Assembly: GCA_963770085.1 (NCBI GenBank)
Contig: CAVYOH010000001.1
Coordinates: 528,164 to 592,163, forward strand
Reading direction: 5' to 3'
Source: Terriglobia bacterium
GTDB lineage: Bacteria > Acidobacteriota > Terriglobia > Terriglobales > Acidobacteriaceae
DNA length: 64,000 bases
Part shown: piece after piece, positions 23,036 through 31,233 of the stretch
Layout: every line of letters starts with the position of its first letter
Position numbering within the stretch: position 1 is the stretch's first letter
Translations under genes and position numbers: made by a program
Notes under the pieces: model-generated
Told to the model about the DNA's origin: nothing
Databases searched by the model: none
What the model saw: the letters and a program-made list of their open reading frames with translations, nothing else

Positions 23036-25261
23036 ATGCGATTCTGCCTAACTAGAACAAACCAGAACAAAGTCTTCATCTCGGTCCTTGTCCTTTTTCT
23101 CATTGTGGCTTTCACTCGCGGCTCCGGCCAGGAGACCGCACCGACGCAGCCAACTCGTCCCAAAGTAGGTTTAGTGCTGGAAGGCGGAGGCGCGCTGGGG
23201 TTGGCGCATATCGGAGTCATACAGTGGCTGGAGGATCATCACATCCCGGTGAACTACGTGGCCGGCACCAGTATGGGCGGCCTGGTAGGCGGCCTCTACG
23301 CAACCGGTCACTCGGCGCCGGAAGTGAAAGCACTGATCAAGACCATCGACTGGGATGAGGTACTGGCAGGTCAAACTCCATACAAGAATCTCTCTTATCG
23401 CCGCAAGCAGGATGCTGCGGAATACCCCAATCGTCTGGAATTCGGCCTCAGGAAAGGAGTGGAGTTCCCGGAAGGATTTAATTCAGGACAGGGAGTGATG
23501 ATGATCCTGGACCGGGTTGCACTGCCGTACTCCAACGTCGCTGACTTCAATGATCTTCCCACTCCGTTTGCCTGCGTCGCGACTGAACTGGTGACAAACC
23601 AAGCCTACGTTTTTCGCAAGGGATCACTTTCACTTGCGTTGCGCGCCACCATGTCACTGCCGGGAGTGTTTGATCCGGTCAGGTGGAATGGACAGATTTT
23701 CGCCGACGGGGGAATGTTGGACAACCTTCCGGTGGACGTAGCGAAGAGCATGGGGGCCGATGTGACGATCGCGGTCCACCTGGAAGTCGCGAAATTAAAT
23801 TCCCAGGCAACGCTGTCTTCCTTCGGAATGTTGAGCCGCTCCATCAGCGTTGTGATTGCCGCCAATGAGTTGCGATCGATGGAAAAAGCGGACATGCTCA
23901 TCTCTGTTCCGCTGGACAAGTTTACTTCGATGCAGTACAACCGTGCGGACCAGCTCATCAATGCCGGTTATGCAGCGGCGGAATCCAAGGCGGCAGTGCT
24001 TAAAACGCTGGCCGTCGATGATGAAACGTGGCGAGCTTATCTGGAGCAACGCGCGGCGCGCCGCCTCACAGCCCCTGCTCCCCAGTTTGTGGAAGTGACT
24101 GGAACCAGCAAGAAGCTGGCGAATGCCATCGAAAACGATCTGAAAAACAACGTTGGAAAGCCGGTTCAGACGGCAGCTTTGCAGGAACAGCTATTGGACC
24201 TGAAGGGGCAAGGACGCTTCTCAAACTTCAGCTACCAGATGGTAAACCGCAACGACAAACCCGGCCTGCTCGTGACGGCAACAGAAAAATCTTATGCGCC
24301 GCCACTTGTGCAACCACTTCTTCTGTTCGGTGGTTCGAATTTCAGTGGTATTGATTTCAGCGCGGGCGCGCGTATTACGTTTCTGGATTTTGGCAGCTAC
24401 CGTGCCGAACTGCGTAATGACGTGATCGTGGGGTCACAGTATGGCATTAACAGCCAGTATTACCGTCCGTTCAGCGCCAGCAGCAAGTGGTTCATCGCGC
24501 CGGCGGGGTTTGCCAGCTACCAGCAATACCCTATCTACAATCGAGATATTTTTCTCGCGCAGTACCGCAAAACCTCCGCAGGTGGAGGCATTGAAGTTGG
24601 TTATGAGTTCGGACGCATTGCGCAACTGAGTGTTGGTTATGTAGCCGCGCAGGAGAGCCTGGCGCCCAAGATCGGCGACCAAACTCTTCTCCCTAATGTT
24701 TCAGGCCGTTTCGGCTCGACCACGCTTCATTTTGCATTGAATGATGTGGACAATCCGGTCATCCCTCGCACTGGAGAGTACATGGACATGAGCACCGCAT
24801 GGGTGGATTCGAACCCCGGAGGAGCTCATTCATTTCCGACGGCACAAGGCGGCGTGGTCAAATTCATTAAGCTGAATCAGCCTTCCTCGGTCTACTTTGG
24901 AGCCCATGGCGGAACCACGTTCGGCAATGAACTGGTAGGGGTGCCTCTTTTTTCTTTGGGAGGCCCTAACGGCTTTGCGGCTTATGGTGAAAACGAATTG
25001 CTTACCGACCAGTATTACCAGTTCCAGGGAGGGTATCTCCGCAAATTAGTCAGGTTCCCGGTTTTTCTTGGCGAGGGACTCTATGTCAACGCGTTGTTGG
25101 AGGGTGGTAAGGTATTTGCGCCGCCCTTCAAATCGCAAACGCCAGGCGATGTGGTTGCCGCAATGGTAGCCAATACAATATTCGGGCCGGTGGAACTCGG
25201 CTGGGCGGTTGGGACGGAGGGGCATCGGCGCGTGTTCTTCAAACTGGGCCGAATCTTCTAA
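23036..25261 (+). CDS. patatin-like phospholipase fused to an Omp85/BamA-like barrel (PlpD-like, type Vd secretion architecture)
   Basis: Signal peptide. Patatin motifs GGGALGLAHIG and GTSMGG, plus DGG. Long C-terminal beta-rich domain ending KLGRIF. Confidence 0.8.
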   Translation: MRFCLTRTNQNKVFISVLVLFLIVAFTRGSGQETAPTQPTRPKVGLVLEGGGALGLAHIGVIQWLEDHHIPVNYVAGTSMGGLVGGLYATGHSAPEVKALIKTIDWDEVLAGQTPYKNLSYRRKQDAAEYPNRLEFGLRKGVEFPEGFNSGQGVMMILDRVALPYSNVADFNDLPTPFACVATELVTNQAYVFRKGSLSLALRATMSLPGVFDPVRWNGQIFADGGMLDNLPVDVAKSMGADVTIAVHLEVAKLNSQATLSSFGMLSRSISVVIAANELRSMEKADMLISVPLDKFTSMQYNRADQLINAGYAAAESKAAVLKTLAVDDETWRAYLEQRAARRLTAPAPQFVEVTGTSKKLANAIENDLKNNVGKPVQTAALQEQLLDLKGQGRFSNFSYQMVNRNDKPGLLVTATEKSYAPPLVQPLLLFGGSNFSGIDFSAGARITFLDFGSYRAELRNDVIVGSQYGINSQYYRPFSASSKWFIAPAGFASYQQYPIYNRDIFLAQYRKTSAGGGIEVGYEFGRIAQLSVGYVAAQESLAPKIGDQTLLPNVSGRFGSTTLHFALNDVDNPVIPRTGEYMDMSTAWVDSNPGGAHSFPTAQGGVVKFIKLNQPSSVYFGAHGGTTFGNELVGVPLFSLGGPNGFAAYGENELLTDQYYQFQGGYLRKLVRFPVFLGEGLYVNALLEGGKVFAPPFKSQTPGDVVAAMVANTIFGPVELGWAVGTEGHRRVFFKLGRIF

Positions 25262-25357
25262 AGGGATCACGCGGTTTATCCCGTTCAAGCTGTTTATCAT
25301 CGCCAAGGATGCAGTTTTACCATTGTGTTAAATGAATGCCAGGGACGGCACTGACGA

Positions 25358-25387
25358 TTGACATTCGTTCAGAGATGACAGTACTAT
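25358..25387 (+). promoter_or_regulatory. sigma70-like promoter of the leader transcript
   Basis: TTGACA (25358-25363), 18-nt spacer, TACTAT (25382-25387). Confidence 0.5.
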
Positions 25388-25415
25388 CAAATTTCAAGTG
25401 AAGAACTCTTGCCAG

Positions 25416-25481
25416 ATGCGGACTGCTATGTGCGACGCGTGTTGTTGTTGCGCGGCCGTCTACGTCCATTCTGGCGAGTGA
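25416..25481 (+). CDS. candidate Cys-rich leader peptide MRTAMCDACCCCAAVYVHSGE
   Basis: 21 codons, 6 of them Cys, including TGT TGT TGT TGC at 25440-25451. Sits between a promoter and an intrinsic terminator. Below the ORF-track length cutoff. Confidence 0.45.
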   Translation: MRTAMCDACCCCAAVYVHSGE

Positions 25482-25531
25482 TTTCTTTCTAGGCATCAGG
25501 TTTTAGTTTTCTCGAAGCGTTTTTCTAGAAG

Positions 25532-25565
25532 CCCACTCACCGGACGTGAGTGGGTTTTTCTTTTT
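25532..25565 (+). terminator. intrinsic terminator / attenuator upstream of the yeiH-family operon
   Basis: Perfect 9-bp stem CCCACTCAC / GTGAGTGGG, loop CGGAC, then TTTTTCTTTTT. Confidence 0.8.
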
Positions 25566-25615
25566 GCGCACAACACCAACCAGCCGCCGTAAGGGCTAAA
25601 GCAAAGGATCAAGAA

Positions 25616-25759
25616 ATGAGTCACCAGGAAATGAATAACCAAGCAACGAGTAACCAGGCACCAATACGAAGGTTTTCGCTCGACGCATGGGCTGTTGTTC
25701 TGGCCTTGATAGCCGTATTTCTGGTCAGGTTTGGCCTGATCAAACATATCTCCTGGTAA
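25616..25759 (+). CDS. small single-TM hypothetical protein
   Basis: AAGGA 7 nt before ATG 25616. Product MSHQEMNNQATSNQAPIRRFSLDAWAVVLALIAVFLVRFGLIKHISW has one TM helix. Confidence 0.4.
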   Translation: MSHQEMNNQATSNQAPIRRFSLDAWAVVLALIAVFLVRFGLIKHISW

Positions 25760-25778
25760 GGGAGTGAAGGAGACAGCC

Positions 25779-26864
25779 ATGGCATCCACATCAGTTCTAA
25801 CATCACAACAACCACTCACTTTACCCAGAAAATTCTTCGCCATCTTTCCCGGCGTGGCGCTGTTAACGATCATCGGCCTGGCCGGCAAGGTTATGGAACA
25901 ATCCATTGCCAGATACGCCAGGGCCCATCATCTACATCTGCCAAATATTGAGTACGTACTCTGGGCCATTGCAATCGGCTTCATCATCTCGAATACGGTT
26001 GGTGTGGCAGAGATTTTTGAGCCTGGCATAGCGACCTACGAGTTCTGGCTGAAAACGGGAATCGTTTTGCTGGGCGCACGATTTATTCTTGCCGACGTGC
26101 TCAAGCTTGGCGGCGTGAGCCTGGCTCTGGTGGTCATTGAGCTGGGGCTGTCGATCGCGCTCATGACGTTTCTGGGACGGATTTTCAAACTCAGCCCCAA
26201 GCTCACCAGCCTGCTGGCGGTGGGATCTTCGATCTGCGGCGTCTCAGCGATTATTGCAACCCAAGGCGCGATTGAAGCAGACGACGAAGATTCTACGTTT
26301 GCGATTGCTGCAATTCTGGCGCTTGGCGCGCTGGCGTTGTTTACCTTTCCGCCGATTGGGCACGCTTTACATATGAGCGACCAGTTCTACGGCCTGTGGG
26401 CCGGCATGGGTGTGGACAACACGGCGGAAGCAGTTGCTGCGGGTGCTCTTTATTCTGATTCGGCTGCGAAGATTGCCGTCCTGGCCAAGACCACGCGCAA
26501 CGCGATGATCGGGTTTGTGGTCCTGGGCTATGCCATTTACTGGGCCGCCCGCGAGGGCCGCACGGTGGTTGGCAGCAAGGCTGCATTTTTGTGGAACAAG
26601 TTTCCAAAGTTTGTACTGGGTTTCCTGACTATCTCGGTGCTGGCAAGTGTGAAGTTCTTTTCCGGCGACCAGATAAATAATATCGCCAACCTGTCACGCT
26701 GGGCCTTCCTGCTCACCTTCGCAGGAGTCGGTCTGCGGATCAATTTCCGCGAGATGAAAGGGCAGGGGATGCGTCCATTTCTGGTGGGTGCGATTGGCGA
26801 AGTGGTCATCGCAGCCATCACGCTTGGATTGGTACTGGGCGCTAGTAAGTTCGTGAAGATATAA
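25779..26864 (+). CDS. YeiH/UPF0324-family transporter (family annotated as putative sulfate exporter)
   Basis: About 360-aa polytopic membrane protein. GAAGGAG before ATG 25779. Family-typical segments LAVGSSICGVSAI and TTRNAMIG. Confidence 0.75.
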   Translation: MASTSVLTSQQPLTLPRKFFAIFPGVALLTIIGLAGKVMEQSIARYARAHHLHLPNIEYVLWAIAIGFIISNTVGVAEIFEPGIATYEFWLKTGIVLLGARFILADVLKLGGVSLALVVIELGLSIALMTFLGRIFKLSPKLTSLLAVGSSICGVSAIIATQGAIEADDEDSTFAIAAILALGALALFTFPPIGHALHMSDQFYGLWAGMGVDNTAEAVAAGALYSDSAAKIAVLAKTTRNAMIGFVVLGYAIYWAAREGRTVVGSKAAFLWNKFPKFVLGFLTISVLASVKFFSGDQINNIANLSRWAFLLTFAGVGLRINFREMKGQGMRPFLVGAIGEVVIAAITLGLVLGASKFVKI

Positions 26865-27016
26865 ACGGGCTTTGCTAATTGCATACAACAAGCGGCGGGT
26901 TTGTGAGCATCTTTGAATTTTGAGGTCTTTTATAGAAGATATAGAAGACTTCGACCCGCCGCGGCATTTTGTTTCTGCTAATCCAAGCGGCTCCGCATGT
27001 TAGATTTGAGGGCCTC

Positions 27017-27766
27017 ATGGAAGCCGACAGCAGAAAAAGATTTCAATTCATCGTTGGATTGTTGCTGGTTCTTCTCTTCATACGACTGGTGGTAATTTTC
27101 TACCAGCGACATGAAGCGAACAAGCCAGCGGAAAAAAAGACCCCCACCTATTCCAGCAATATGGATGACTACGTCACTCTGCCCAAAATCCATCCTTATG
27201 ACCTAAAGTCGGCGGCGAAGGAACTGGTTGGGAAAACCATCTGGGTGCGGGCCGGGAACGCTATCCACTATTATCCGTTTTCAGCAGCAACGCATACGGC
27301 TGATCTCAAGCATGAAAAAGGTCTTCTGCCCCCGTTGGCTAAGCTGCAGATCAAAGACGTGGTGTTACAGAAGATTCCCAGCGGAGCTCTGGCGGAAGGA
27401 CAGGTTTCAGTGGTACAGAAGCAGGCTCTTGCAGTATTTCAGATGGGAGATGAACCGGGCACATATGCCGTGCCGATTGGCGCCAGCACGGGTGACGATT
27501 TCAACTTCACAGGCAATGACCTGTTCTTCTTTGCTGATCCGCACGAACTGTATAAACACTGGCCACAGGAAACCTGGCAGGCAATCGACAATCATCAGGC
27601 GAAACAGGGGATGAATGAGATTCAGGTTTCAATGGCCCTGGGCACGGTTGCCACAGGAGCAGGCGAATATGGCAATCGCACGCTGCAATTCGACAACAAC
27701 GGTCATCCGGTGACGGTAACCTTCGCCAACAACAAAGCCACGTCTGTATCAGAACAACAAAAGTAG
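27017..27766 (+). CDS. membrane-anchored hypothetical protein
   Basis: ATG 27017 (MEADSRKRFQFIVGLLLVLLFIRLVVIF) gives an N-terminal TM anchor. No recognisable motif. Confidence 0.55.
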   Translation: MEADSRKRFQFIVGLLLVLLFIRLVVIFYQRHEANKPAEKKTPTYSSNMDDYVTLPKIHPYDLKSAAKELVGKTIWVRAGNAIHYYPFSAATHTADLKHEKGLLPPLAKLQIKDVVLQKIPSGALAEGQVSVVQKQALAVFQMGDEPGTYAVPIGASTGDDFNFTGNDLFFFADPHELYKHWPQETWQAIDNHQAKQGMNEIQVSMALGTVATGAGEYGNRTLQFDNNGHPVTVTFANNKATSVSEQQK

Positions 27767-27792: not shown

Positions 27793-28659
27793 TTAGTCAG
27801 CGCCAGACGTTTTGCGTCCGCGTTTCGGCTTGGCTGCCGCCTCATCGATGGCCTCAGTTTCGCCTGACGTCTCACGCACGGAACGCGGCGGCTTCTTGCC
27901 TTCGGCCAGACTCATCTTCAAGGCTTCCAGAATATCGATGACTGGGGCTTTATGCGCCGGCGTTACCGTTTCCACAATCTCTTTGCCTTCGATTTTGGCC
28001 TGGATCATGGACATGAGATTGTCGCGATAGTTGTCTTTGTATTTGTCAGGTTCGAAGGAGGCCAGCAGGGAATCGATGAGCATTTTGGCAAGAGCCAATT
28101 CCTTGTCCTGGATGGCGCTGGTGTCAGTGCGGAATTCTTCCACCTGGCGAATTTCGTCCTTGTAATACATGGTGTGCAGCAGGATGCCCCGCGCGCCGGG
28201 CCGCAGAATCACAATATGTTCGCGATTGTGCATGGCAATCTTGGCTACGCCCACACATTGGCTCTGCTTCAAGGCTTCGAAAAGCAGAGCGTAGGGCTTC
28301 TCGCCGGCTTCGTCGGGAGCCAGATAGTAGGAGGCGTCAAAGTAGATGGGATCGACCTCAGTAGTCTTTACAAACTCCAGGACTTCCATGGTCTTGGCAG
28401 TTTTGGGCGCGACCTTCTTGATCTCTTCGTCCTCGACAACAACGTACTTGTCTTTCTCGTACTCGTACCCTTTTACAATGTCACTGCGTGAGATGGGCTT
28501 GTCTTCCGCCTGGCAATACAGGACTTGTTTTACGCGCGAATTGTCGGCCTTATGCAACTGATTGAAGCTCACGCTTTCACTGCGGGCCGCGCTGTACAAT
28601 TTCACTGGCAAAGAGAGCAAACCAAAAGTCAGGTGTCCCTTCCAAACGGTGCTGGCCAT
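27793..28659 (-). CDS. ku: Ku protein (NHEJ DNA end-binding)
   Basis: N-terminus MASTVWKGHLTFGLLSLPVKLYSA is the bacterial Ku signature. Basic C-terminal tail. Confidence 0.9.
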   Translation of the reverse strand: MASTVWKGHLTFGLLSLPVKLYSAARSESVSFNQLHKADNSRVKQVLYCQAEDKPISRSDIVKGYEYEKDKYVVVEDEEIKKVAPKTAKTMEVLEFVKTTEVDPIYFDASYYLAPDEAGEKPYALLFEALKQSQCVGVAKIAMHNREHIVILRPGARGILLHTMYYKDEIRQVEEFRTDTSAIQDKELALAKMLIDSLLASFEPDKYKDNYRDNLMSMIQAKIEGKEIVETVTPAHKAPVIDILEALKMSLAEGKKPPRSVRETSGETEAIDEAAAKPKRGRKTSGAD

Positions 28660-28734: not shown

Positions 28735-31233
28735 ATGTCACTAGAAGAGTACCGAAGAAAACGCGTATTTTCCCGCACCCCGGAACCGCCGCCTGAACTG
28801 GCTAAGACCCCGGGCAAGCGGTTTTTCATACAGCGCCACTCTGCCCGCCGGCTTCACTACGATCTGCGGCTTGAAATGGACGGTGTATTGAAATCATGGG
28901 CCTTGCCGCAGGGGCCTACGCTTGACCCTGAAATGAAGCGACTGGCGGTGCATGTGGAAGACCATCCGCTGGATTATGGCGATTTTGAAGGCACCATTCC
29001 CAGCGGCAATTACGGCGCCGGGAACGTTACCTTGTGGGACCGAGGCACGTATGAATGGCTGGGAGACCGGCCGCCGGAGGCGCAGTGGGAGAAAGGCGAT
29101 CTCAAATTGCTCTTTCATGGCCACAAATTAACGGGGGAATTCGCGCTGGTCAGGACGAATCGGAACAAGGGCAAAGACTGGCTGCTGATCAAGAAGAAAG
29201 ACTTCGCCGTGCGGCCAGGTTGGGACCCCGAGTCAGATACACGGAGTATGCTTCAGACGCCGGCAGATCTCTCGTCCATTGAGGGTGCGGCCAGGGAAGC
29301 CATGCCGTCGAAGATCGAGCCGATGTTGGCCACGCTTCAAAACGACGTGCCTGAGGGATCCGATTGGCTCTACGAGATTAAATGGGATGGCTATCGCGCT
29401 ATCTGCTTTCTTGAGGGCGGGAAAGTACGCATGGCTTCGCGACGCGGGAACGCGATGGAGAACCAGTTTCCTGAGATCGCGAAGGAACTTGGCCAAAGCG
29501 TGAAGGCAGAGAACGCAATCCTGGATGGAGAAGTGGTTGCGCTGGACGAAAACGGGTCGCCCAGCTTTCAGCTTTTGCAAAACCACGTCGGGTTCAGGAA
29601 AGCGGCTTCTCTTCGTGGCGAGAAGCCGCAGACGCTCATGTTCTACGCTTTCGACCTGCTCTACATGAATGGCTTTGATCTGCGACGTGCGGCGCTTATC
29701 GACAGGCGCAGGCTGCTATCATCCATCATCCTTCCCGGCGAAATCATTCGCTACTCCGAACACTTTGTAGGAAGAGGCCAGGAGTTGCGGGATGCGGCCC
29801 AGGAAAAAGGGCTGGAGGGCATCGTCGCCAAGCAGGCGCAGAGCCGCTACATATCCAAGCGGAGCACAGACTGGATCAAGCTCAAGACCACAACCCAGCA
29901 GGACTTCGTCATCTGCGGATACATTCTTGGAGAACGTGAACCCTTTGGTTCACTTGTACTGGGCTATCACAAAGGAAAAAAACTGGTTTATGCAGGTAAC
30001 GTGGGCTCTGGCTTTAACCAGCAGACGTTGAAGTCGACGTACGAGAAGATGGAACCGCTGGTAACTAAAAAGCCAGTTTTAAGCGACGTCCCAAAAGAGA
30101 TTGGAGCGGTGACCTGGGTGAAACCGGAGCTGGTCTGCGTGGTGAAATTCAATGCCTGGACCGCCGACGAGAGGCTGCGTGCCCCGGTATTTATCGGTTT
30201 GCGAATGGATGGAAATCCGGACGAAGTAGTGCGCGAAACGGCAGAGCCTGCAACCGCTGAAGCCAAGGCCAAGCCACAAGGTGAGAAAGAGCGCACGCCT
30301 TTGCTGTCCGCGGAGGCTACCGAACAGAGTCTGACCATTGAGGGCAGGCGACTCAAATTCACGAACCTGAAGAAAGTCTTCTACCCGGCTGAAGGCTACA
30401 CCAAGCGCGATCTGATCAACTTCTATGCTGCGGTCTCAGATCTGCTGGTGCCGCATCTCAAGTCGCGGCCGCTTTCGTTGAAACGGTATCCTAACGGTAT
30501 TGATTCTGACTTCTTCTTTCAGAAGGAAGCCGCCACCAGCTTTCCCGACTGGCTGCACACGGAATTGATCGCCACCGACGAAACGTCCAAGACGCGGTTT
30601 GTGATTTGTGATGACAAAGCGTCACTGCTGTATCTGGCCAATCTGGGATGTATTGATCAGAATCCATGGATGAGCCGGCTGGGCTCGCTGGAAAATCCTG
30701 ACTTCATCCTGCTGGACCTGGATCCCTATCATTGCGGCTACGATCGCATTGTGGAGGCGGCAAGGCTTGTGAAAGGGAAGCTGGACCTGATCGGATTGAA
30801 GGGATATCCCAAGACCACTGGCGGTGACGGCATGCATATCTACGTGCCGCTGGAGCCGCAATACAGTTATGCTCAGGCCCGCACTTTCGCGGAAATACTC
30901 TCGCGCTGGGTAACGGCAGAACGTGCTGATCTCTTTACCACTCCGCGCAATGTATCCGCACGCGAGAAGGGGAAAGTTTATTTTGACTATCTGCAGATCG
31001 CAGAGGGCAAGACCATTTCTGCTCCGTACGTGCTCCGGGCAAATCCTGGTGCGCCGGTAGCAACGCCGCTGGACTGGGATGAAGTGCGTCCGGGATTGAC
31101 GCCGCTGCAATTTCACATCGGCAACGTAATGAGGCGGTTTGACCGAGTGGGTGATCTTTTCAGCGCCGTGCTGAACAAGCCGCAAGAGATTGAGCCGGCA
31201 CTGGAAAAATTAAGCAAGTTGATGGGAGCGTGA
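28735..31233 (+). CDS. ligD: ATP-dependent DNA ligase D (phosphoesterase-ligase-polymerase)
   Basis: PE domain (RRLHYDLRLE), ligase adenylation motif YEIKWDGYR, C-terminal primase-polymerase domain (GGDGMHIYVPL). Divergent from ku. Confidence 0.9.
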   Translation: MSLEEYRRKRVFSRTPEPPPELAKTPGKRFFIQRHSARRLHYDLRLEMDGVLKSWALPQGPTLDPEMKRLAVHVEDHPLDYGDFEGTIPSGNYGAGNVTLWDRGTYEWLGDRPPEAQWEKGDLKLLFHGHKLTGEFALVRTNRNKGKDWLLIKKKDFAVRPGWDPESDTRSMLQTPADLSSIEGAAREAMPSKIEPMLATLQNDVPEGSDWLYEIKWDGYRAICFLEGGKVRMASRRGNAMENQFPEIAKELGQSVKAENAILDGEVVALDENGSPSFQLLQNHVGFRKAASLRGEKPQTLMFYAFDLLYMNGFDLRRAALIDRRRLLSSIILPGEIIRYSEHFVGRGQELRDAAQEKGLEGIVAKQAQSRYISKRSTDWIKLKTTTQQDFVICGYILGEREPFGSLVLGYHKGKKLVYAGNVGSGFNQQTLKSTYEKMEPLVTKKPVLSDVPKEIGAVTWVKPELVCVVKFNAWTADERLRAPVFIGLRMDGNPDEVVRETAEPATAEAKAKPQGEKERTPLLSAEATEQSLTIEGRRLKFTNLKKVFYPAEGYTKRDLINFYAAVSDLLVPHLKSRPLSLKRYPNGIDSDFFFQKEAATSFPDWLHTELIATDETSKTRFVICDDKASLLYLANLGCIDQNPWMSRLGSLENPDFILLDLDPYHCGYDRIVEAARLVKGKLDLIGLKGYPKTTGGDGMHIYVPLEPQYSYAQARTFAEILSRWVTAERADLFTTPRNVSAREKGKVYFDYLQIAEGKTISAPYVLRANPGAPVATPLDWDEVRPGLTPLQFHIGNVMRRFDRVGDLFSAVLNKPQEIEPALEKLSKLMGA

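Follow-up and report, generated by a model that had tools for sequence, protein, structure and literature searches.

The best described ribosome-mediated attenuators, those of trpL, hisL, pheL, thrL, leuL and ilvL in E. coli, have a short open reading frame (ORF) rich in codons for the regulating amino acid, four RNA regions that form mutually exclusive 1:2, 2:3 and 3:4 helices, a terminator upstream of the first structural gene, a leader stop codon located at region 2 and regulatory codons approximately 17 nt upstream of region 2. Attenuation by leader peptides keyed to cysteine is rare, and the tested cases found in the literature are mycobacterial only. In M. smegmatis, short ORFs (sORFs) with consecutive Cys codons were shown to mediate a response to cysteine (Canestrari et al. 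2020, bioRxiv 10.1101/834739; Mol Microbiol 2020), and Ms5788A is leaderless and acts at the level of translation, the stalled ribosome unmasking a downstream ribosome-binding site (bioRxiv 10.1101/834739). Leaders with Cys runs have also been predicted before actinobacterial cys operons, with no recognisable terminators (Seliverstov et al. 2005, PMC1262725). The sole terminator-type Cys case found in the literature is a predicted one, uORFC-8-2 upstream of Rhodobacterales cysS, which combines tandem Cys codons in an upstream ORF with a terminator stem and a U-run (Brewer et al. 2021, PMC8632094). Attenuators are essentially uncharacterised in Acidobacteria (PMC2965389), and in full-text literature we found no account of an acidobacterial Cys leader, or of a Cys leader before yeiH or a sulfite-reductase operon. 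Here we describe such a candidate, a Cys-rich leader located upstream of genes for a small transmembrane (TM) protein and a YeiH/UPF0324 transporter in a Terriglobia bacterium (contig CAVYOH010000001.1). The 64-kb stretch analyzed is referred to as the window, and positions are those of this stretch.

We estimate a probability of about 80% that this element is a trp/his-type ribosome-mediated transcription attenuator keyed to Cys-tRNA charging, as suggested by comparative and thermodynamic evidence. The features of the classical attenuators listed above are all present in the window leader. Unlike them, it is predicted to sense cysteine, belongs to an acidobacterial host (Terriglobia), and precedes genes for a small membrane protein and a transporter, not for biosynthetic enzymes; also, the Acidobacteria leaders lack a Shine-Dalgarno sequence, start 8–10 nt past the -10 box and match no leader in Rfam. 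With the mycobacterial “Cys ribulon” and the actinobacterial leaders, they share an unannotated sORF, placed at the very start of the mRNA, with at least two Cys codons in a row, the predicted control of sulfur- or cysteine-related operons, and the occurrence of the same motif before more than one type of operon. However, there is no sequence similarity to either, and here a strong terminator with a U-tract is present, with the antiterminator as the competing helix. Similarly, uORFC-8-2 is a predicted ribosome-mediated Cys attenuator with a terminator, known from computation only as is ours, but it comes from another phylum, precedes a different target (cysS, for cysteinyl-tRNA synthetase), has an unrelated sequence and contains two Cys codons, mostly UGC, whereas the Acidobacteria leaders contain three to eight, mostly UGU. 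The mechanism class is known; new are the phylum, the presence of the complete classical design with a terminator, and the targets, namely YeiH with the small-TM protein and a siroheme-reductase operon.

Sequence inspection and scans bore out the promoter TTGACA-N18-TACTAT at 25358–25387 and the terminator with a CGGAC loop and T5CT5 tract at 25532–25565, both of which had been named in the original prediction (Table 1). The promoter has 10 of 12 consensus matches and was the sole sigma-70-like site detected by the scan within 24800–27300. The terminator stem could even be extended to 14 bp (25527–25540 with 25546–25559), and 50 nt separate the end of its U-tract from the start codon of the small-TM gene. 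The leader ORF had been given as 21 codons from ATG 25416 with six Cys, four of them consecutive; the frame and the run of four stand, but this version contains five Cys, and GTG 25398 is the more likely start because it aligns with the start codon of every close relative (the type-1 leaders described below; ATG in 25 and GTG in 3 of 28). The resulting ORF has 27 codons and six Cys. It has no Shine-Dalgarno sequence, and such a sequence is present at both yeiH and the small-TM gene (AAGGAG and AAGGA, respectively). The distance from the -10 box to the start codon is 10 nt in type-1 leaders and 8 nt in their reductase-operon counterparts (sir-type, see below). Because the Shine-Dalgarno sequence is missing and the -10 box lies only 8–10 nt before the start, the leader mRNA is probably leaderless or nearly so, resembling the mycobacterial polycysteine sORFs.

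The composition of this ORF is exceptional within the window. Among 1037 short ORFs (10–50 aa, six frames), it alone has a run of four Cys, and its Cys fraction of 22% is the highest, against 1.0% in long ORFs; the chance of at least six Cys in 27 codons, calculated from base composition, is approximately 1.5e-4. We also scanned for the combination of an sORF containing CC and at least three Cys with a perfect-stem terminator within the following 110 nt. Exactly one match was found on both strands of the window, the leader itself, and the same scan over 1.89 Mb of related loci, both strands, yielded 30 matches upstream of yeiH and 9 elsewhere. An Rfam scan of 24500–27500 (E up to 10) gave no meaningful match, the best being 16–24 bits (E at least 0.1), far below the gathering scores, including those of the Trp, His, Leu, Thr and Phe leaders and the SAM riboswitches.

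For comparison, we used 160 loci around YeiH homologues, 80 genomic and 80 metagenomic, all relatives being metagenome-assembled genomes (MAGs) or metagenome contigs. YeiH homologues number in the thousands, and the closest ones (71–93% identical) came from Terriglobia (“Candidatus Angelobacter”) MAGs and soil metagenomes. A homologous leader was found approximately 200–400 nt upstream of yeiH in 32 of 32 loci whose YeiH was at least 75% identical and whose upstream sequence was long enough. The original prediction had pointed to related upstream regions as a check, and in all of these 32 loci the Cys-run ORF, the terminator and the alternative pairings were kept. We aligned 28 distinct leaders of this type (type 1; MAFFT alignment A1), derived from Terriglobia MAGs and soil metagenomes, with YeiH 75–97% identical. 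The -35 element TGAC was invariant (28/28), a -10-like hexamer (typically TAAGAT, TAGGAT or TACTAT) was aligned in 27 of 28 (L100 is gapped there), and the start codon followed 10 nt past the -10 box. The region 1 motif CGCCAGAUG was conserved, and TGTTGT was present in all 28 leaders together with one to six further Cys, giving totals of 3–8 Cys of which at least two were always adjacent; L100, with MRNLRQMLSVMSSGCCCCCCCCISQHSGE, had a run of eight. Region 2 with the stop codon (UCUGGCGRGUGA) was also conserved, the spacer between ORF and terminator was variable, and the terminator core CCCACUCAC/GUGAGUGGG was invariant and accompanied by a U-tract in all type-1 relatives. The terminator loop, CCRGA, was unusually conserved, which its pairing with region 2 in the predicted antiterminator would explain.

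A second group of leaders was found before a different operon. In 95 of the 160 loci (tblastn with sir, sirC and cobA queries), the small-TM/yeiH pair was located on the same strand behind a reductase operon, which encodes a NIR_SIR siroheme reductase (PF01077 + PF03460), a siroheme synthase N-terminal protein (PF13241 + PF14824) and a uroporphyrinogen-III methyltransferase (PF00590). In those loci that had no proximal leader, the small-TM ORF started approximately 20 nt past the last of these three genes. A Cys-rich short ORF was found just upstream of the reductase gene in 27 of 30 loci that included the operon start, and 24 distinct leaders of this sir-type were aligned. Their ORFs have 28–31 codons and 6–8 Cys (for example, MKNCCQMMCCPCACSAMCQMTPISGQRSFRT in L014), start 8 nt past the -10 box with no Shine-Dalgarno sequence, and are equipped with their own promoter and terminator. 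The first 21 nt are nearly identical to those of the window leader (ATGAAGAACTGCTGCCAGATG against GTGAAGAACTCTTGCCAGATG), and both have a TTGACA promoter, the region 2 sequence UCUGGC and an AGCCCAC..GUGGGCU terminator. Judged by these sequences, the two leaders are homologous. The reductase-operon genes were absent from the window (tblastn). Given this absence and the homology of the leaders, it appears that in the window lineage the yeiH pair became detached from the reductase operon and kept the leader or took it along. A sulfur link, which had been put forward as an inference from the transporter family, is thus supported both by gene context in 95 of 160 loci and by a homologous leader of the reductase operon.

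Both alignments supported the competing helices. In the 28 type-1 leaders, 97.9% of alignment cells were paired in the 2:3 antiterminator, versus 39–49% when the partner was slid by 1–3 columns, and 92.0% were paired in the 1:2 helix, the inner hairpin and the 3:4 helix together, versus 28–51% in the slid-partner control; taken separately, the 1:2 helix (GCCAGA:UCUGGC) was paired in 92% and the 3:4 terminator helix in 98% of cells. In the sir-type leaders, the 1:2 pairing GCCAGA:UCUGGC was invariant (24/24), GCCAGAG recurs in the 5' arm of the terminator and provides a 2:3 option, and CUGG(C/U) corresponds to region 4. Here the 2:3 antiterminator was paired in 95.4% of cells (19–57% with slid partner) and the 1:2 and 3:4 helices together in 98.8% (29–55%). 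Compensatory changes were found in the terminator, where the base pair at type-1 alignment columns 234:259 covaries (GC 18, AU 9), and in the inner hairpin that spans the Cys codons (GAACAAC..GUUGUUC), which was paired in 84% of type-1 cells and contains five pairs with changes on both sides. In L094, both 2:3 partners were changed (UGCUG and CAGCA), as read by eye, since they are misaligned in the MAFFT alignment. The sequence of the inner antiterminator stem was not conserved among relatives, most of which have some inner stem.

Conservation of this kind could also be expected of a translation-independent RNA switch, either riboswitch-like or a target of an RNA-binding regulator, that uses the same terminator and antiterminator and in which the UGU-rich ORF is incidental. 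Such a switch would fit the nucleotide-level conservation of regions 1–4 and TGTTGT, the location of the Cys codons within the conserved hairpin just described, the lack of a Shine-Dalgarno sequence in the leader and the several repeats of GCCAGA and UCUGGC. However, in 28 of 28 type-1 and 24 of 24 sir-type leaders (52/52) the ORF ran uninterrupted from the aligned start to a stop codon located at region 2 or immediately behind it, with all indels in-frame or compensated and the Cys run always in frame. The leaders differ by whole codons in their number of Cys, which ranges from 3 to 8 and includes the run of eight in L100; the conserved position of the stop codon is relevant only if a ribosome arrives; no Rfam family matched; and a dissimilar leader family (type 2, below) again has a CCC run in a likewise placed short ORF. 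We therefore consider an RNA switch very improbable. In four loci (L088, L090, L003 and L097), frameshifts altered the C-terminal peptide and moved the stop codon by 6–18 nt but kept the RNA motif GGCGRGUGA, which suggests that the 3' end of the ORF is constrained as RNA; the Cys run appears to be constrained as codons.

Codon usage in the leaders was also recorded. Of the Cys codons in type-1 leaders, 86 are TGT and 33 are TGC, and long ORFs show the opposite preference, with 38 TGT and 77 TGC in the window and 485 TGT and 2306 TGC in the 160 loci. The GCA anticodon of tRNA-Cys reads UGU through a G:U wobble, and a preference for UGU in the leaders could sharpen the sensitivity of stalling; this bias is confounded by the UGUUGU:ACAAC pairing of the inner hairpin and by sequence relatedness.

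Other leader versions with the same design were found beyond these two groups. In eight more distant loci (L156, L052, L059, L072, L035, L143, L045 and L040), a type 2 leader showed no evident sequence similarity to type 1 but had the same four-region architecture. Its peptide in most loci is M..C......C.PCCC..D.WGGVRSE, its terminator differs (GCCCGCCAACAGC..GCUGUUGAGCGGGC with a U-tract), the 3' end of its ORF (GGCGGGG..GAUCCG) is complementary to CGGAUU..GCCCGCC, and the 5' strand of its 1:2 helix lies immediately before the Cys codons. Additional versions were observed in L037 (MCACCMC...) and in L097 and L098 (MKNATSNRAAMACCCS...). The recurring layout consists of a Cys run, an ORF 3' end complementary to the 5' arm of the terminator, and a terminator with a U-tract, and in all type-1, sir-type and type-2 leaders examined the terminator was located between the leader ORF and the first gene. 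Altogether, a proximal Cys leader was present before yeiH in 42 loci, counted among those with enough upstream sequence. Besides, in L039 (2718–2786) and L048 (2679–2768), one of which is a Terracidiphilus MAG, an upstream sORF ends in ...SACCCR at its stop codon, and no terminator was seen between this sORF and the small-TM gene, an arrangement resembling the actinobacterial leaders; these two may use a different route, translational or Rho-dependent.

The variety of leader peptides bears on what is sensed. A ribosome-mediated attenuator might respond to another signal, either through a Cys-rich arrest peptide (for a metal, redox state or a sulfur compound) or as a sensor of translation capacity. 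This would fit the conserved non-Cys residues, MPMC.NNSCC in many type-1 and QMMCC..C.CNAAC in sir-type leaders, the ability of Cys-rich peptides to bind metals, and the response of proteobacterial YeiH to sulfite (PMC12880088). However, the Cys run is the sole feature common to all versions, the flanks of type 1, type 2, L037 and L097 differing completely; RNA pairing explains much of the non-Cys conservation; and consecutive Cys codons suffice for a cysteine response in mycobacteria (bioRxiv 10.1101/834739). A different signal is thus quite improbable, and charging of Cys-tRNA is the input that we favor.

Folding of the window leader supported three mutually exclusive helices with the leader stop codon inside region 2, as had been predicted by hand. 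The predicted 1:2 helix was recovered in the centroid fold, as CUUGCCAGA (25408–25416) with UCUGGCGAG (25470–25478). The minimum free energy (MFE) structure of 25466–25545 is the antiterminator, at -22.8 kcal/mol (z -2.4; reached by 5 of 200 shuffles). It contained the two segments named earlier, GAGUG:CACUC (25476–25480 with 25534–25538) and UUUCUAGG:UCUAGAAG, but the pairing proved longer than proposed, with UCUGG:CCGGA (25470–25474 with 25540–25544) completing the 2:3 core and extending into the terminator loop. The competing helix engages the terminator arm, not a downstream ribosome-binding site. When region 4 is present, the window terminator is the more stable structure (-30.3 versus -22.8 kcal/mol), as is also the case for the terminator of the trp attenuator in E. 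coli.

To represent the ribosome, nascent RNA was folded from the 3' edge of the ribosome to the terminator loop, that is, in the state preceding synthesis of region 4. With the ribosome stalled at the Cys codons, the MFE structure was the 2:3 antiterminator in all eight leaders modelled (energies are given in Table 1), and with the ribosome at the stop codon only residual structure of -1 to -7 kcal/mol remained in the same leaders, leaving region 3 free. The relation between stop codon and antiterminator seen in the window thus holds in the seven other leaders, and the trp/his-type logic claimed for this locus was reproduced. With no ribosome, L084, L156 and L097 locked region 2 in the 1:2 helix. 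Using 300 dinucleotide shuffles of the upstream segment per leader as control, the observed energy was reached by 4 shuffles for the window, 30 for L084, 0 for L014, 2 for L046, 4 for L156, 37 for L040, 0 for L037 and 0 for L097, and was thus significant for six of eight leaders. The count of paired arm nucleotides was often matched by shuffles and is a poor statistic; only folding energy was discriminating. An earlier variant, the equilibrium fold of the whole leader with ribosome-sized stretches kept unpaired, did not discriminate between states (terminator probability 0.74–0.96 throughout); it allowed pairs to span the ribosome and was superseded by nascent-RNA folding up to the terminator loop.

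We infer promoter activity, translation of a nearly leaderless leader, stalling, termination and the direction of the response, as follows. The conserved sigma-70-type promoter would start an mRNA with almost no 5' untranslated region that opens with the 27-codon, six-Cys ORF, and region 2 could pair backwards with region 1 or forwards with region 3. With ample Cys-tRNA, the ribosome would run to the stop codon inside region 2 and cover this region, leaving region 3 free; the terminator would form, and transcription would end at approximately 25555–25565. If the leader is not translated, 1:2 pairing would lead to termination, as predicted in several relatives; for the window, this outcome would rest on folding order. 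When Cys-tRNA is scarce, the ribosome would stall at 25440–25451, holding region 1 away and exposing region 2, which begins approximately 17–18 nt downstream of the Cys run. Region 2 would then take region 3 as it emerges, forming the -22.8 kcal/mol antiterminator, which would block the terminator and allow RNA polymerase to read into the small-TM gene and yeiH. The controlled unit would be a two-gene operon for a small membrane protein and a YeiH-family transporter.

Table 1. Features of the leader and its surroundings in the window, examples of sir-type leaders in other loci, and folding energies of the predicted antiterminators.
Feature	Position	Strand	Basis or value
Upstream gene, 741-aa protein, patatin-like phospholipase and weak Omp85-type domain	23036-25261		
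-35 box TTGACA	25358-25363	+	sequence and promoter scan
-10 box TACTAT, 18-nt spacer after -35	25382-25387	+	sequence and promoter scan
Leader ORF, 27 codons from GTG, encoding VKNSCQMRTAMCDACCCCAAVYVHSGE, six Cys	25398-25481	+	aligned start of relatives
Region 1 (CUUGCCAGA), anti-antiterminator strand at ORF start	25408-25416	+	centroid fold
Other leader Cys codons	25410-25412 and 25431-25433	+	
Alternative in-frame start ATG 25416, 21 codons encoding MRTAMCDACCCCAAVYVHSGE, five Cys	25416-25481	+	
Four consecutive Cys codons TGT TGT TGT TGC, proposed sensor	25440-25451	+	
Region 2 (UCUGG-C-GAGUG), last three sense codons and first two stop bases	25470-25480	+	
Leader stop TGA	25479-25481	+	inside region 2
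Inner antiterminator stem, UUUCUAGG 25486-25493 with UCUAGAAG 25524-25531, around a small hairpin	25486-25531	+	MFE
Terminator 5' arm CCCACTCAC	25532-25540	+	scan
Region 3 (CACUC-A-CCGGA), 3' half of terminator 5' arm and loop	25534-25544	+	
Terminator loop CGGAC	25541-25545	+	scan
Terminator 3' arm GTGAGTGGG	25546-25554	+	scan
U-tract T5CT5	25555-25565	+	scan
First structural gene, 47-aa single-pass membrane protein with C-terminus ...SLDAWAVVLALIAVFLVRFGLIKHISW	25616-25759	+	
YeiH/UPF0324 (PF03601) transporter, 361 aa	25779-26864	+	Pfam E 7e-76
Long hairpin after yeiH stop, inner 13-bp stem, then GGCATTTTGTTTC	26892-26962	+	-39.3 kcal/mol, z -3.5, 0/200 shuffles
ORF, 265 aa, no Pfam/NCBIfam match, downstream of yeiH	26969-27766		
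Ku-like ORF	27793-28659	-	by eye
LigD-like ORF	28735-31233		by eye
Sir-type leader, examples	L014 671-766, L016 816-911, L031 758-853, and 24 other loci		
Stalled-ribosome antiterminator, window			-22.8 kcal/mol
Stalled-ribosome antiterminator, L084			-17.1 kcal/mol
Stalled-ribosome antiterminator, L014			-26.7 kcal/mol
Stalled-ribosome antiterminator, L046			-21.5 kcal/mol
Stalled-ribosome antiterminator, L156			-26.1 kcal/mol
Stalled-ribosome antiterminator, L040 (ribosome on CCC run)			-19.0 kcal/mol
Stalled-ribosome antiterminator, L037			-30.5 kcal/mol
Stalled-ribosome antiterminator, L097			-25.0 kcal/mol

The genes that follow the leader agree with the small membrane peptide and YeiH-family transporter originally proposed. 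The transporter matched PF03601 with 255 bits over profile positions 3–303 of 304, and its match to TIGR00698 (119 bits) fell below the cutoff of 232.6; by sequence, it belongs to what we regard as a divergent clade of the family. The small-TM protein had no Pfam or NCBIfam match, and a homologous ORF (35–50 aa) was found directly upstream of yeiH in essentially all 160 loci. Its core consists of ...SLD.WAV..., a hydrophobic helix and a C-terminal [LI]KH[IV][PSG]W; a variant ending in ...GW also exists. This protein may serve the YeiH clade as a subunit or chaperone that has so far escaped recognition.

A compact unit of promoter, ORF and terminator might also be a free-standing gene for a small Cys-rich peptide, either metal-binding or a precursor, with the transporter operon transcribed separately. 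The completeness of this unit and the 22% Cys content of the peptide would be compatible with such a gene. However, there was no further promoter-like site between the terminator and the small-TM gene, the C-terminal peptide was lost across frameshifts that kept the RNA motif, and in every version the 3' end of the ORF was complementary to the terminator arm, a property that a peptide gene would not need. Also, the element accompanied yeiH whatever was located upstream, or the yeiH-containing reductase operon elsewhere. We regard a free-standing peptide gene as the least probable of the alternatives, with little chance of being correct, and retain the attenuator as the preferred explanation. 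The possibility that the terminator merely ends the patatin-like gene upstream was rejected: the two are separated by the promoter, the element stays with yeiH whatever gene is upstream, and the patatin-like gene was not conserved beside the leader in relatives. At the other end of the operon, transcription probably terminates at the long hairpin directly behind the yeiH stop codon. Two ORFs farther downstream were recognised by eye as Ku-like and LigD-like, which we take to be proteins of non-homologous end-joining. The order of the three genes downstream of yeiH recurs in many type-1 loci.

Information on YeiH in other bacteria comes from Proteobacteria, where the evidence for sulfite or sulfate export is genetic (PMC12880088). 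Salmonella YeiH is required for sulfite resistance and is under the control of a sulfite-sensing LysR-type regulator, YeiE (PMC12880088), and the Bordetella pertussis homologue BP2808 was induced 140-fold by excess cysteine (bioRxiv 10.64898/2026.04.22.720190). These proteins, like YeiH of E. coli, belong to the same Pfam family (PF03601) as the window transporter and are tied to sulfite stress and cysteine/sulfur homeostasis. These data suggest export and induction by sulfur excess. The regulation differs, being based on a LysR-type sulfite sensor or on excess cysteine in Salmonella, E. coli and Bordetella, whereas here a cis-acting RNA/ribosome device responding to shortage is predicted. Also, unlike the proteobacterial genes, acidobacterial yeiH has an extra small-TM partner and its usual place is in a siroheme-reductase operon.

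Several observations weigh against a cysteine-keyed attenuator or its assignment to sulfur assimilation. First, the 1:2 and 2:3 helices were nearly without true covariation in both the type-1 and the sir-type alignments; because regions 1–4 are almost invariant within families, what supports these helices is their conservation and their reappearance in separate families rather than covariation. Second, at equilibrium the 14-bp terminator outcompeted the antiterminator whatever part of the RNA was masked, so that the model, like that of trp, depends on co-transcriptional kinetics. Third, with no ribosome, the RNA of the window, L014, L046 and L037 up to the loop still favored the antiterminator, so that termination on untranslated RNA would rest on the order of folding in these leaders. 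Fourth, we found no documentation of near-leaderless translation for Acidobacteria, and the window leader has a GTG start and no Shine-Dalgarno sequence. Fifth, the window YeiH is only 26% identical to E. coli YeiH, and if it resembled its proteobacterial relatives, which appear to be exporter-like and are induced by sulfite or excess cysteine, its regulation would be opposite to the cysteine-shortage induction predicted here. Finally, the best scores of the reductase were to NirA/nitrite-reductase models, all below cutoffs, so that its sequence does not fix sulfite versus nitrite as substrate. NirA-type proteins include sulfite reductases, and together with the Cys leader this makes sulfite a plausible substrate.

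Because most relatives co-transcribe yeiH with the siroheme reductase under a homologous Cys leader, this acidobacterial YeiH clade would be expected to serve sulfur assimilation, through uptake of sulfite or another sulfur oxyanion or through management of the sulfite intermediate. Two readings are possible: the transporter may supply the co-transcribed reductase by importing sulfite or another sulfur oxyanion, or it may act as a safety valve that handles the sulfite intermediate each time the assimilation pathway is turned on. A broader proposal is that Terriglobia run sulfur assimilation mainly through one homologous family of nearly leaderless poly-Cys ORFs coupled to terminators, and that the YeiH clade and the small-TM protein act in uptake. 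This proposal is tentative and we consider it rather doubtful. If true, it would represent an acidobacterial “Cys ribulon” acting at transcription termination, in which the leader family fronts the siroheme-reductase/siroheme-synthesis/small-TM/yeiH operon and a copy moved along where yeiH moved, as in the window, and the YeiH clade would work opposite to the “exporter” label of its family.

Although the mechanism class itself is textbook, the locus adds a regulatory link between the acidobacterial YeiH clade and sulfur assimilation in abundant soil bacteria, and its several leader versions amount to a natural set of comparative mutants. The conserved, unnamed small membrane protein before yeiH is a candidate new subunit. 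YeiH/UPF0324 proteins are widespread and have only recently been linked to sulfite; control by cysteine shortage, as predicted here, would point to a role in sulfur assimilation and raises the question of whether this YeiH clade may import rather than export its substrate.

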